Positions 6,686-16,383 of a DNA stretch of 18,433 bases are shown one piece after another. Numbering within the stretch: the stretch's first letter is position 1; each line of letters starts with the position of its first letter. The stretch lies in UHGV virus genome UHGV-0086921; one strand, 5' to 3'. Under the pieces are notes generated by a model. The model saw nothing but the letters and a program-made list of their open reading frames with translations, did not search any database and was not told the origin of the DNA. Source of the DNA: a virus. A program made the translations under genes and the position numbers.

Positions 6686-7158
6686 ACCTCAATCTCTCTG
6701 ACCGTTCCGCCAGCTTCTTTGAATTTTGCAATCAGGCTGTCAGCCTTATGCTCGAACTGACCATAACCAGCGCCCGGCAGTGAAGCCCAGATATTGCTGC
6801 AACGGTCGATAGCCTGACGAATATCACCGCGATCAATCATCGGCAAAGCGCCACGTTCCTTAATCTGCTGCAATGCCACAGCGTCCTGGCTTTTCGGAGA
6901 GAAATCTTTCAGGCCAAGTTGCTTACGGTAGGCATCCCACCAACGGGAAAGAAGCTGGTAACGTCCGGCTGCTGTTGATTTGAGTTTTGGGTTTAGCGTG
7001 ACAAGTTTGCGAGGGTGATCTGAGTAATCAGTGAATAGCTCTCCGCCAACAATGACGTCATAACCATGATTTCTGGTTTTCTGTCGTCCGTTATCTGTTC
7101 CCTCTGACCACGCCAGCATATCTAGGAACGCCTTACGTTGATTATTGATTTCCACCAT
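6682..7158 (-). CDS. R: Endolysin R (lytic transglycosylase)
   Basis: 158 aa [51 protein letters not shown]..., essentially the lambda R protein as I recall it. Confidence 0.95.
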
Positions 7159-7465
7159 CTTCTACTCCGGCTTTTTTAGCAGCGAAGCGTTTGATAAGCG
7201 AACCAATCGAGTCAGTACCGATGTAGCCGATGAACACGCTCGTTATATAAGCGAGATTGCTACTTAGTCCGGCGAAGTCGAGAAGGTCACGAATGAACCA
7301 GGCGATAATGGCGCACATCGTTGCGTCGATTACTGTTTTTGTAAACGCACCACCATTATATCTGCCGCGAAGGTACGCCATTGCAAACGCAAGGATTGCC
7401 CCGATGCCTTGTTCCTTTGCCGCGAGAATGGCGGCTAACAGGTCATTTTTTTCTGGCATCTTCAT
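7142..7465 (-). CDS. S: Holin S (class I holin with dual-start motif)
   Basis: 107 aa [39 protein letters not shown]..., near-identical to lambda S105/S107 including the Met-Lys-Met dual start. Confidence 0.95.
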
Positions 7466-8302
7466 GTCTTACCCCCAATAAGGGGACTTGCTCTATTTAA
7501 TTAGGAATAAGGTCGATTACTGATAGAACAAATCCAGGCTACTGTGTTTAGTAATCAGATTTGTTCGTGACCGATATGCACGGGCAAAACGGCAGGATGT
7601 TGTTAGCGCAACCTCTTGCCACCCGCTTTCACGAAGGTCATGTGTAGAAGGCAGAAGCGTAACTATCACTAATGAATTCAGGCCAGACAGTGGCTACGGC
7701 TCAGTTTGGGTTGTGCTGTTGCTGGGCGGCGATGACGCCTGTACGCATTTGGTGATCCGGTTCTGCTTCCGGTATTCGCTTAATTCAGCACAACGGAAAG
7801 AGCATTTATGGCTCGCATCGCGGGAAAAAACCCACGGTAGAGAGTCGAACTCTACAAATACTCTTACCTGCTGTGCGCTCCGTTTCGTGGAGCTAACGGC
7901 AACGACATTACCGGATTATTCGCTGCACCCTTGAGGGATTTACTAAGGCGACATGCCCGTTGTTACCCACGAATGAAAGCTCTATCTTTCGAACAGACTT
8001 TGCGCGCAAGAACGACGATAAATCATAAAGCTCTCATTGGTGGGTGCCCATTATTAATCACAGCGGGCCACTGCGCCGAATTTGTTCACAAGGAATCGGA
8101 AGACCTTGCTGACTTACAGGCTATTACGCCGCCATCAGAACAACATCATCGTTTGCATTTATCTTTGTGGTCAGTTTCTAAAAACCCGCAAAGTCGCCAA
8201 CTCTGACGAAAACTATCGTTGTGCTGCCACAACGATAAGAGCACTCGGTGCATTTAAGCCAAGCCCCATAAGGGAGAATGCTCTTACCTGTTGTGCAAAC
8301 GC

Positions 8303-8331
8303 AAAAAGCCCCGAGCTATTAACTCAGGGCT
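8303..8331 (-). terminator. tR'-like terminator of the short pR' leader transcript
   Basis: Minus-strand hairpin AGCCCTGAG...CTCGGGGCT followed by TTTTT, about 40-60 nt downstream of the pR' start. It is followed by the CACAACAGGTAAGAGCATT motif that follows tR' in lambda. Confidence 0.5.
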
Positions 8332-8366
8332 TTATTTAACGAGTGCATTTATCCATCGTTGAGTCA

Positions 8367-8395
8367 AATTTACCCAACTTTATTCAATAAGTCAA
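8367..8395 (-). promoter_or_regulatory. Late promoter pR' (Q-dependent antitermination site)
   Basis: Minus strand reads TTGACT, 17 bp spacer, TAAATT, just downstream of the Q stop. This matches my memory of lambda pR' (TTGACTTATTGAATAAA.TTGGGTAAATTTGACTCAACGATGG). Confidence 0.6.
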
Positions 8396-8437
8396 TATCA
8401 TGCCGTTAATATGTTGCCATCCGTGGCAATCATGCTG

Positions 8438-9061
8438 CTAACGTGTGACCGCATTCAAAATATTGTCTGCGATTGACTCTTCCTTGTGGCATTGCACCAC
8501 CAGAGCGTCATACAGCGGCTTAACAGTGCGTGACCAGGTGGGTTGGGTAAGGTTTGGGATTAGCATCGTCACAGCGCGATATGCTGCGCTTGCTGGCATC
8601 CTTGAATAGCCGACGCCTTTGCATCTTCCGCACTCTTTCTCGACAACTCTCCCCCACTGCTCTGTTTTGGCTATATCAACCGCACGGCCTGTACCGTGGC
8701 AATCTCTGCATCTTGCGCCCGGCGTCGCGGCACTACGGCAATAATCCGCATAAGCGAATGTTGCGAGCACTTGCAGTACCTTTGCCTTAGTATTTCCTTC
8801 AAGTTTTGCAACGCCACGGTATTTCCCCGATACCTTGTGTGCAAATTGCATCAGATAGTTGATAGCCTTTTGTTTGTCGTTCTGGCTGAGTTCATGCTTA
8901 CCGCAGAATGCAGCCATTCCGAATCCGGCTTGTGATTGCGCCATCCCCATAGCAGCCATCACATCAGTACCGGAAAGAGAGTCAGAAGCCGTAGCCCGTG
9001 GTGAGTCGCTCATCATCGGGCTTTTTGGCGAATGAAATTTAGCTACGCTTTCGAGTCTCAT
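8438..9061 (-). CDS. Q: Late-gene antiterminator Q
   Basis: 207 aa MRLESVAKFHSPKSPMMSDSPRATASDSLSGTDVMAAMGMAQSQAGFGMAAFCGKHELS..., essentially lambda Q as I recall it. Confidence 0.95.
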   Translation of the reverse strand: MRLESVAKFHSPKSPMMSDSPRATASDSLSGTDVMAAMGMAQSQAGFGMAAFCGKHELSQNDKQKAINYLMQFAHKVSGKYRGVAKLEGNTKAKVLQVLATFAYADYCRSAATPGARCRDCHGTGRAVDIAKTEQWGRVVEKECGRCKGVGYSRMPASAAYRAVTMLIPNLTQPTWSRTVKPLYDALVVQCHKEESIADNILNAVTR

Positions 9062-9246
9062 GGCCTTCCCCTTTTGCCCTGTTTGACCATCAGGACGCCG
9101 TTAACTATTACGTGACGCTCGCCTTTGCTGTCTCGGTTGTACTTGAGCACTGTTCCTCTTGCGCAGGAAAGCATCCTTGCCACTTCGGTCTGATTGCCTC
9201 GTGTCTGGATAAGAAGCTCTGGTATCGTTTGAATTGTGGCGTTCAT
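9058..9246 (-). CDS. ninH: NinH-like small DNA-binding protein
   Basis: 62 aa immediately upstream of Q with an ATGA overlap; the motif GNQTEVARMLSCARGTVLKY resembles lambda NinH (GNQTEVARRLKCSRGTVRKY). Confidence 0.7.
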   Translation of the reverse strand: MNATIQTIPELLIQTRGNQTEVARMLSCARGTVLKYNRDSKGERHVIVNGVLMVKQGKRGRP

Positions 9247-15735: not shown

Positions 15736-16383
15736 ATGAAAACGATGCATGAAATTATCGGGGAAAGGATCAAGTCCCTTAGAGAAGCTAAAGGACTTAG
15801 CCAGGCTCAATTGGCCAAGCTTTGCGGCTGGGCTGCGCCTTCACGCCTGGGGAACTACGAGTTAGGAACAAGAAAGGTTAGCGCGGATGACGCGCTGGTT
15901 CTTGGGGCGGCACTCGGCGTATCTCCGGCAAAAATAATGTTTGGCGAGGATTCAGACGCCGTATTTCGCCAATATGAATACCCGTTATTTTCTTCAGTGC
16001 AGGCCGGGCCATTTTCGGAGGTGGGAAGCTACACAGCCAGCGATGCAAAGGCATGGGTCCCAACGACCACAAAAGCCAGCGAAAAAGCTTTCTGGCTTGA
16101 GGTGAAGGGGCATTCAATGACGGCGCCTCAGGGGGTTCGTCCAAGTTTTCCGGAAGGCATGCTGATACTCGTTGATCCGGCTGAGCCGGTAGAGTCTGGG
16201 GATTTCTGCGTGGCTTCTGCAAATGGTGATTCAGAGGCAACGTTCAAGAAGTATGAGAAGGATGCAGGGGTTAGTTACCTGGTACCTTTAAACCCGGCAT
16301 ATAGAACACTGGATTGCGACCATAGCTGCCGCATCATAGGCAAGGTAGTTAAGGCGCAGTGGCCTGAAGAGACGTTTGGCTGA
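15736..16383 (+). CDS. cI: CI prophage repressor (LexA-like S24 autopeptidase family)
   Basis: 215 aa with an N-terminal HTH ([12 protein letters not shown]...) and C-terminal S24 features (VKGHSMTAP... Ser nucleophile, and a later Lys in IGKVVK). An in-frame alternative start at 15745 has an AAGGG RBS. Confidence 0.9.

Follow-up and report, generated by a model that had tools for sequence, protein, structure and literature searches.

The virus genome UHGV-0086921 (18,433 nucleotides [nt]; this whole stretch is hereafter the window) is a mosaic lambdoid genome in reverse orientation, closest to mEpX1, HK620, and HK022 (97% identity over about 36% of the window). Between its late terminator tR' and its holin gene S it carries extra DNA relative to phage lambda, and we found that it adds a further cassette to a modular array of noncoding RNA units in the late leader. 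Within the cassette, which is delimited by hairpins, there is very probably a functional structured RNA gene derived from transfer-messenger RNA (tmRNA). The tmRNA is usually seen as one unit, whose tRNA-like part enters the ribosome and whose mRNA-like part supplies a tag. Here the mRNA-like part seems to have been kept under selection without the tRNA-like part, as judged from the coding signature of its tag reading frame, from covarying pseudoknots, and from the promoter of its own that the gene has in other phages. Unless stated otherwise, the features described below lie on the minus strand.

Resemblance to tmRNA

In its long form the RNA gene spans 341 nt (7877 to 8217, beginning with GAUAGUUUUCGU), as delimited by sub-threshold Rfam tmRNA matches and by alignments of homologues. 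A sequence-only reading of the window had listed a small RNA among the possible contents of this interval, next to a regulatory element or a decayed moron; the small RNA is what we retain, but its tmRNA origin and its tag frame had gone unrecognized. In an Rfam search with relaxed thresholds, the only matches were to tmRNA families, all sub-threshold and all on the late strand at 8075 to 8178. The window copy matched tmRNA_permuted with E=0.007 and beta_tmRNA with E=0.014, and the copy of a Klebsiella phage did so with 7e-5 and 1e-5. RF04321 scored 26.3 bits versus a gathering score of 47, and RF01850 scored 16.8 versus 84. The best Rfam alignments are those to the two-piece permuted tmRNAs of alpha- and beta-proteobacteria and cyanobacteria (RF01849-51, RF04321), and they cover the resume region, the open reading frame (ORF), and the first pseudoknot.

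The Escherichia coli tmRNA gene, ssrA, aligns with the element at the resume region (ssrA 80 to 100) and at the 3' acceptor strand. At the latter, CCGTTAGCTCCAC (the CCGUUAGCUCCAC strand) aligns to ssrA 349 to 361 and lies 267 nt from the resume codon, versus 269 nt in ssrA. Because CCGUUAGCUCCAC matches the 3' acceptor end of ssrA at nearly equal spacing, the long form is, judged from its sequence, a full-length tmRNA relative minus the 5' acceptor strand. The context upstream of the resume codon, AUAAAU (8157 to 8162), aligns to the Rfam tmRNA models as well as to ssrA 80 to 100 and shares with one-piece tmRNA (SsrA, RF00023) the conserved A at -4. Also in common with one-piece tmRNA are a ten-codon tag of the form AND...AA/VA followed by a double stop, a stop codon in the helix 5 loop, H-type pseudoknots downstream of the ORF, and a hairpin plus AGCUCC-A-C at the positions of the T arm and of the 3' acceptor strand, at an E. 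coli-like distance from the resume codon.

A conserved ten-codon frame

The putative tag frame (8121 to 8156) consists of ten codons, GCA AAC GAU GAU GUU GUU CUG AUG GCG GCG (8156 to 8127), which encode ANDDVVLMAA, and of two stops, UAA UAG. The E. coli tmRNA tag is ANDENYALAA. The sequence-only reading had found no convincing sense-strand ORF, which is right as far as long ORFs and protein genes are concerned but misses this conserved frame. All 129 copies have it intact, and they encode 18 distinct tags. Members gathered with a pattern that leaves the ORF free kept the ten codons in all 11 cases, with synonymous changes at codons 1 and 2 (GCA>GCU, AAC>AAU). Entropy within the ORF amounts to 5.87, 4.65, and 9.58 bits at the three codon positions, so variation is mostly at third positions. 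Among 48 sequences, the stop codon, always at one fixed position, is UAA in 44, UAG in 2, and UGA in 2, and the two other frames are closed in 45 and 39. There is no gap column in the ORF versus 23 in the region 3' of it. With this coding signature, the tag frame appears to behave as a translated ORF.

These data bear on the serious rival explanation, which we consider unlikely, namely, that the RNA is an untranslated decoy or regulator. As a tmRNA look-alike, it would titrate S1, secondary SmpB sites, RNase R, a host nuclease, or a defence factor and so modulate or protect ribosome rescue. A decoy has no need for an open frame, yet the frame always has ten codons and is the sole open one; the third-position variation, the use of three stop codons at one place, and the synonymous changes at the first two codons also argue against it. 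On the other side, three loops that a protein could read (UGAUUAAUAA, GGUCUUCC, and AGUUUUCGU) are invariant among homologues, and no acceptor domain was found anywhere, a complete phage genome included. The element can also be a self-contained gene of 190 nt with its own promoter, moving between unrelated phages as anti-defence genes do. There is even a precedent in mirror image, since the DS6A gene, which has the tRNA-like domain only, inhibits tmRNA (PMC4131195, PMC11915505).

Structure of the RNA

The core of the RNA consists of helix 5 and of two H-type pseudoknots. Helix 5 (8109 to 8138), which holds the stop codon within its loop, shows compensatory change at all four outer pairs (alignment A2, columns 37-40/66-69; inner columns 46-48/53-55). 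In pseudoknot PK2 (8076 to 8108; CAAGG/CCUUG and CCGA/UCGG), 99% of the cells are paired and 6 of 9 pairs show compensatory changes. PK3 (8046 to 8075; CGCAG/CUGUG and GCCC/GGGC, with the loop UGAUUAAUAA) has 100% and 88% of the cells paired and again 6 of 9 compensatory pairs; its stem 2 varies in length and sequence. We evaluated this model on 48 non-redundant sequences with slid-partner and shuffle controls. Over the whole core, 93.4% of the cells are paired versus 34 to 47% with slid partners, none of 500 shuffles attained these values, and compensatory changes affect 17 of 25 pairs across 143 cells, counts that are inflated because the homologues were partly collected with patterns that fix some positions and are kin by descent.

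Downstream of the core, the long form has an internal hairpin (7966 to 8044; CCCAC-CAAUGAGAGC...GCUUUCAUUC-GUGGG), which the comparison of long forms places between the short-form core and the 3' domain. It is a variant of the spacer scaffold described below, and two loci (L013 and L042) have a canonical spacer hairpin in its place. It is followed by a tentative PK4-like segment (7926 to 7958), whose sequence is kept in long forms and whose pairing draws no support from variation; the search for a supported PK4 pairing in long forms was fruitless. The hairpin at the position of the tmRNA T arm (7899 to 7926; GCAGCGA/UCGUUGC) has a covarying stem, with GCUGG/CCAGC, GUCAG/CUGAC, and GCGACGC/GCGUCGC among its versions. 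The loop, which does not belong to the T-psi-C type, comprises 14 nt in the window and, in other phages, 8 nt (GUUGAUCG); the hairpin ends 5 nt before the acceptor-like strand. This strand is itself part of a hairpin, GCUCC-ACGAAAC-GGAGC (7877 to 7893; -6.7 kcal/mol), with two compensatory pairs. The 5' strand of this hairpin, (U)AGCUCC-A-C, looks like a tmRNA 3' acceptor strand, yet it is closed by the downstream GGAGC, which produces A3:U70. In these two 3' hairpins (7926 to 7899 and 7893 to 7877), 93.6% of the cells are paired versus 27 to 45% with slid partners.

The missing tRNA-like domain

Several observations weigh against a tmRNA-derived template, in addition to the inflation of the covariation counts. 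The 5' acceptor strand, G3.U70, and CCA are all absent from the element, whose acceptor-like hairpin has A3:U70 in the window and G3:C70 in phage Bas79 instead of G3.U70. It also differs from one-piece tmRNA in lacking a T-psi-C-type loop, in having a spacer-type hairpin between PK3 and the 3' domain, and in being phage-borne, with a late promoter in this window. For the 5' 60 nt, RNAalifold gave no consensus structure, and no equivalent of PK1 was recognized there. The short forms, of about 190 nt, stop after PK3, with the whole 3' domain absent. ARAGORN calls no tmRNA in the window, where no Rfam family reaches its gathering score either, all tmRNA models included; both methods miss the element because it has no alanine-acceptor tRNA-like domain. 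Among 130 loci, ARAGORN calls a tmRNA in only two, taking a neighbouring tRNA (tRNA-Lys) as the acceptor. In the complete genome of Bas79 (46.9 kb), there is neither a tRNA nor a tRNA-like gene to act as a partner, and a search for complementarity to host ssrA found nothing special. Finally, the copy in the window lacks its own promoter, and a weak terminator-like hairpin precedes it.

The comparison with two-piece tmRNA is equally ambivalent. The short form has the extent of the coding piece of such genes, and in several phages its 5' end pairs with an upstream strand across a hairpin, in the topology of a permuted gene. In contrast to two-piece tmRNA, there is no acceptor piece upstream, in the window or in the complete phage genome, and the helix across the hairpin is free to vary in sequence and never has G3.U70. 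In the window, only tR' and spacer hairpin A lie upstream of the RNA gene, with no T arm, 3' strand, or CCA of an acceptor piece.

We considered and rejected several candidates for the missing domain. An acceptor stem with G3.U70 and A73 can be drawn between GGGGCUU (8267 to 8261) and AGCUCC-A (7894 to 7888). GGGGCU is confined to the lineage of the window, and the 3' strand forms the covarying local hairpin; we treat the match as a coincidence (the chance of such a 6-mer within 500 nt is about 0.1). The ARAGORN call of a permuted tmRNA in phage Moogle is no proof of a two-piece gene, as its 5' domain lies within the tRNA-Lys gene and such calls occur in just the two loci mentioned. The spacer hairpins and the structured unit 2 of the leader (see below) do not qualify as a lost tRNA-like domain, given their hypervariable apices, the absence of G3.U70, and a wrong topology, in which the mRNA-like part would extend the acceptor end as a 5' leader or a 3' trailer. 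A tRNA-like domain might be borrowed from host tmRNA by base pairing, but the duplex energy of the two RNAs does not surpass that of shuffled sequences (-24.4 versus -25.8 +/- 4.1 kcal/mol). We likewise rejected a clamp that would join the 5' end of the RNA to the ACGAAAC loop of its own 3' domain: the strands are complementary (UUUUCGU/ACGAAA), but both are invariant and the duplex energy is not significant.

As a separate observation, Moogle has at about 930 to 1010 of its locus (L009) a T arm (GAAGG-UUCGAUU-CCUUC), then ACCCUUC-G-CCA, AACA, GAAGGGU (the complement of ACCCUUC), and UAGUGUAAUGGCAGCAC, which resembles a D arm. These parts stand in the order of a circularly permuted tRNA-like gene, and the first half is the "3' tRNA domain" of the permuted tmRNA call of ARAGORN.

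Distribution and orientation among phages

BLAST searches with the insert revealed relatives in 711 phage records, at 71 to 93% identity. Among them are Felixounavirus and Mooglevirus, Ackermannviridae (Det7, T765), Schitoviridae (TR2), Nonanavirus (PJ16), T1-like siphophages of Klebsiella, Escherichia, and Vibrio (GP-1, Bas77-81, pYD38-A), P1/P7, and Erwinia phages. The carriers are of lambdoid, P1-like, T1-like, N4-like, 9NA-like, Felix O1-like, and Vi01-like kinds. Pattern scans of IMG/VR added 120 loci, and the ORF-free pattern 11 more members. Among 5,426 complete E. coli genomes, 126 (2.3%) have the element, always in the interval between Q and the holin gene and never annotated in RefSeq; in these lambdoid prophages the location holds even when the types of Q and of holin differ. 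The core of E. coli 55989 (2691526 to 2691705) is 96.7% identical to that of the window. The pattern was found in 4 of 185,579 species-representative bacterial genomes, all in prophage contexts of Enterobacterales. Near the elements (within 1.5 kb), all 261 tRNA genes are on the strand of the tag ORF; for the Moogle locus, where the annotation table has "-" in locus coordinates and ARAGORN "+", i.e., the strand of the element, the ARAGORN strand was used.

A promoter of the form TTGACA-N17-TAGATT is present in 28 of 129 copies and ends 56 to 58 nt 5' of the resume context. In T1-like phages, the unit opposes the orientation of the surrounding tail genes. The autonomy of the unit in virulent phages implies that it acts independently of any particular downstream gene, and this makes it quite improbable that the element is only a cis-acting part of the leader, such as a signal for processing or stability, a partial terminator, or a control of S translation. 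That explanation would fit the constant position of the element in lambdoid prophages (the late leader from tR' to the holin gene), the resemblance of spacer hairpins to processing stems, and the terminator-like score of a 9-bp hairpin followed by a U run. It is at odds with units that have their own promoter in virulent phages, within tRNA clusters or facing against neighbouring structural genes, and it leaves the conserved ORF and the pseudoknots unexplained.

We also consider it very improbable that the element is a decaying relic, i.e., a captured tmRNA gene that lost its tRNA-like end and now hitchhikes without function in a recombination-prone region. The vestigial tRNA-like domain, the fact that lambda does without the element, and its rarity in E. 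coli genomes would agree with this scenario. Against it, the element has been kept across the 711 phage records with compensatory substitutions and in some cases with its own promoter, and all 140 copies examined have an intact frame, when a dead gene would gather indels and stops.

The element has largely escaped annotation, and most of the 711 records have no RNA annotation over it. Standard pipelines (ARAGORN, Rfam, PGAP, and those of the pharokka type) miss the gene, and several GenBank records have spurious antisense proteins instead. A "hypothetical protein" coding sequence (CDS) antisense to the RNA gene is annotated in Bas79 (L002, 3087 to 3467 and 2941 to 3093), PJ16 (L003, 2905 to 3342), and BUCT_XGG_PSM_3377 (L004, 1498 to 1713), and these CDSs are probably spurious. 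Such annotations, which lie on the equivalent of the plus strand of the window, are the point in favour of a protein-coding moron of 91 amino acids, an explanation to which we give next to no credence. The sequence-only reading had proposed to examine the conservation of the corresponding ORF (7931 to 8206, plus strand). Of 97 distinct homologous cores, 76 have this frame interrupted, and it matches no PHROG family; we conclude that it is not a gene.

Four large Klebsiella plasmids (H147 to H150, 104 to 114 kb, non-mobilizable) carry the core element and may be phage-plasmids. A 741-bp query (window 7700 to 8440) has matches at 362 plasmid places in E. coli genomes. In the P1-like phages P7 and RCS47, parts of the insert have matches near the tRNA-Asn and tRNA-Thr genes.

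A possible role in ribosome rescue

Our leading explanation, which as a whole we hold to be slightly more likely than not, is a tmRNA-derived late RNA gene that would act on ribosome rescue as a template for a tag. The RNA would be made in late lytic transcription from pR', only when Q allows read-through of tR'; since the gene in the window lacks its own promoter, synthesis of the RNA should depend on Q. In virulent phages, the unit would be transcribed from its own sigma-70 promoter. The RNA could then be released by processing at the flanking hairpins and serve the host rescue machinery as an alternative template, with (A)ANDDVVLMAA being added to nascent chains on stalled ribosomes. The canonical route is closed to it, because it has no alanine-accepting tRNA-like domain, and a partner or a loading route beyond canonical tmRNA would be needed. 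Actual use of the tag frame in trans-translation is conceivable, although we lean slightly towards doubting it. A more specific version, about which we are rather doubtful, is that the element is a free-standing mRNA-like tmRNA module which spreads horizontally among unrelated enterobacterial phages and reprograms trans-translation to a phage tag. Such a module would need a way of template delivery that no tmRNA is known to use, be it by a non-canonical partner RNA, by the entry step of host tmRNA-SmpB, or by direct loading of an empty mRNA channel.

Phage-borne derivatives of ssrA have precedents. The tmRNA databases include phage entries with a full tRNA-like domain (mycobacteriophages and Bacillus phage G) as well as the DS6A gene, which has that domain alone and indicates that phages keep partial tmRNAs; the database pipelines require tRNA-like segments and CCA (PMC4131195, PMC11915505). 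Like the tmRNAs of the mycobacteriophage Bxz1 group and of phage G and like the DS6A gene, the element is a phage-borne ssrA derivative; unlike the former two, it lacks a complete tRNA-like domain, and it is the reverse of the latter. In genome announcements, "ssrA" calls of ARAGORN were mentioned in passing for the phages Felix O1 and Moogle, and Mushroom was said to have none (PMC4319497, PMC4392139). BLAST shows that Mushroom does carry the core element. The tag strings occur in no searchable paper, and the supplements of the 2025 tmRNA database paper contain none of the phage names or tags that we searched for.

If the RNA is active, phages could manipulate ribosome rescue or protein tagging in a way that has not been described. 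Alternatively, a rescue template could be loaded without a covalently linked tRNA-like domain. Either outcome would bear on the question of why some phages depend on host trans-translation.

Spacer hairpins and the origin of the cassette

The sequence-only reading had described the insert as bounded by imperfect direct repeats. The repeated motif is indeed there twice, 4 to 5 nt from the approximate positions first given: CACAACAGGTAAGAGCATT (19 nt) is exact at 8295 to 8277 and CACAGCAGGTAAGAGTATT follows, with two mismatches, at 7875 to 7857. This pair (D1, spacing 420) has no further match in the window, with a chance expectation of 0.01 and two matches in none of 200 shuffles. A second direct repeat, D2, had been overlooked (CACAACGGAAAGAGCA at 7789 to 7804 and CACAACGATAAGAGCA at 8228 to 8243, spacing 439). 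Its copies are the reverse-complement partners of the D1 copies, one each, which makes the four sequences two copies of one long hairpin. Hence, what had been read as direct repeats corresponds to the 5' arms of a pair of spacer hairpins, A and B, that punctuate the array between RNA units. Since these arms belong to a conserved hairpin scaffold, of which lambda has one copy and which recurs in the other phages examined, they are no scars of an insertion.

Spacer hairpin A (8224 to 8296; -32.2 kcal/mol, z -4.9) is made of a 5' arm at 8296 to 8276, an apex at 8275 to 8247, and a 3' arm at 8246 to 8228. Spacer hairpin B (7789 to 7875; -36.4 kcal/mol, z -5.4) has its 5' arm at 7875 to 7856 and its 3' arm at 7807 to 7789. 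In the apex of B there are two adjacent hairpins, the T-arm-like GUAGAG-UUCGACU-CUCUAC (7855 to 7837) and CGUGGG-U6-CCCGCG (7836 to 7819). The latter explains the terminator-like hairpin with T6 that had been noted here: the T6 is a loop, and there is no convincing terminator. The same family of apices was found in five other loci (L011, L041, L126, L067, and L094), with a change of GUAGAG/CUCUAC to GAAGAG/CUCUUC. The perfect 9-bp hairpin of the earlier description, AUCGUUGUG-GCAG-CACAACGAU, was found at 8215 to 8236 (-11.5 kcal/mol, z -5.2). Part of it coincides with the 3' arm of hairpin A, and it takes in the 3 nt with which the RNA gene begins, so it is an alternative pairing, and the UUUUCGU that follows makes it score as a weak terminator-like site. 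The arrangement is shared by seven loci (L010, L011, L041, L061, L073, L081, and L113).

The single spacer hairpin of lambda has -33.2 kcal/mol (z -3.7), and the fetched phage loci have 167 distinct ones, with unrelated contents. Over 48 distinct pairs of arms, 96% of the cells are paired versus 40 to 55% with slid partners, and 8 of 17 pairs show compensatory changes. There is hardly any variation in the inner stem (UAAGAGCAUU/AGUGCUCUU), and the apex, of 25 to 190 nt, is hypervariable. The outer stem joins the 3' end of the upstream unit to the 5' end of the downstream one and varies with the unit that follows (CACAAC/GUUGUG, AACUAUC/GAUAGUU, GGCGAAAUC/AGUUUUCGUC). It covaries with the 5' end of that unit and has no alanine identity; in the window, this 5' end sits in the 9-bp hairpin instead. 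The outer boxes are superficially like those of integron attC sites (RYYYAAC/GTTRRRY), a candidate that we rejected: the outer stem varies in step with the adjacent unit, for which pairing in RNA is the better account.

The cassette probably arrived by recombination between the conserved arms of the hairpins, in a form of cassette exchange, and transposition would be unlikely. Repeats of 19 to 20 nt on both flanks could be read as the target-site duplication or terminal repeats of an insertion sequence or of a miniature inverted-repeat transposable element. To this possibility we attach as little weight as to the moron: the repeats are scaffold arms, with one copy in lambda and 167 in the fetched loci around unrelated contents, and there is no transposase gene.

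We also observed that the apices of several spacers have canonical-looking T arms (GGGUUCGAAUCCC, GGGUUCAACUCCC, and GUAGAG-UUCGACU-CUCUAC), e.g., in L109, L027, L016, L049, L062, and at 7855 to 7837 of the window. The 3' arm reads ...UGCUCUU-U-CC(A/G), like the acceptor end of a tRNA. The spacers may be tRNA-derived processing signals for RNase P or RNase III. A tRNA gene within the insert, as suggested by the T-arm-like GUAGAGUUCGACUCUCUAC, was rejected, since neither ARAGORN nor Rfam RF00005 found one in 7000 to 9200.

The late leader of the window and of lambda

The gene Q (8438-9061) and the lambda-type holin gene S (7142-7465) are separated by 972 bp in the window versus 676 bp in lambda. 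A pR'-like late promoter (8367 to 8395; TTGACT-17-TAAATT), which emerged from a promoter scan and is homologous to pR' of lambda, is followed by a tR'-type intrinsic terminator (8303 to 8333; a 13-bp stem and a T run in a terminator scan), whose read-through would depend on Q. A terminator of this type is likewise upstream of the element in many prophages. BLAST alignment to lambda (NC_001416) bore out the lambda-like flanks that the sequence-only reading had described: window 8437 to 8338 corresponds to lambda 44510 to 44609 (95% identity), 8314 to 8277 to 44768 to 44805 (84%), and 7804 to 7466 to 44847 to 45185 (97.3% over the 339 bp upstream of S). The alignment also established the extra segment, with 472 bp in the window (8276 to 7805) in place of 41 bp in lambda; measured between the repeats, there is one extra unit of 420 bp. 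To this account must be added a loss: the body of the lambda 6S RNA (44610 to 44767, 158 nt) is absent, with 23 bp (8315 to 8337) in its stead, which separate the conserved start region from the terminator.

Lambdoid phages are known to carry cargo between Q and S, namely, stx and tRNAs in Stx phages. The assignment of the insert to this cargo site proved right, as the same slot holds tRNA-Thr and tRNA-Asn in Kapi1 and mEp506. The element shares with this cargo the genomic slot and the dependence on read-through by Q but differs from it in being neither a cloverleaf tRNA nor a protein gene. Elsewhere in the window, ARAGORN calls a tRNA-Ala(cgc) of 83 nt (15934 to 16016, plus strand) inside an ORF (15736 to 16383, plus strand); it is probably a false positive, as no Rfam family, tRNA included, reaches the gathering score anywhere in the window.

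Downstream of hairpin B, there is a structured unit, unit 2 (7710 to 7794; -27.7 kcal/mol, z -3.95), which is closed by a 9-bp stem (GUUGUGCUG/CAGCACAAC, the inverted repeat I2) and is common to lambda. In virulent phages, in which tRNA genes follow the unit, the covarying counterpart of this stem is GUUGUGGUG/CACCACAAC. The leader of lambda between tR' and S (about 44785 to 44990; L001, 576 to 659 onward) holds one spacer hairpin and unit 2. Hence, this seemingly "empty" leader is a member of a family of hairpin-delimited RNA cassettes that also occurs in the tRNA regions of virulent phages.

A further module recurs in the phage loci, composed of GGUCGAAAGACGCCGG-AUAAACGUAA-CCGGC and, after it, a strand of 7 nt plus an A. 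It lies upstream of the hairpin and tmRNA-like unit in L012, L049, and L051 and far downstream in T765 (L007). Its stem covaries (GCCGG/CCGGC to GCUGG/CCAGC), and in some phages its 7-nt strand pairs across the spacer hairpin with the 5' end of the tmRNA-like unit.

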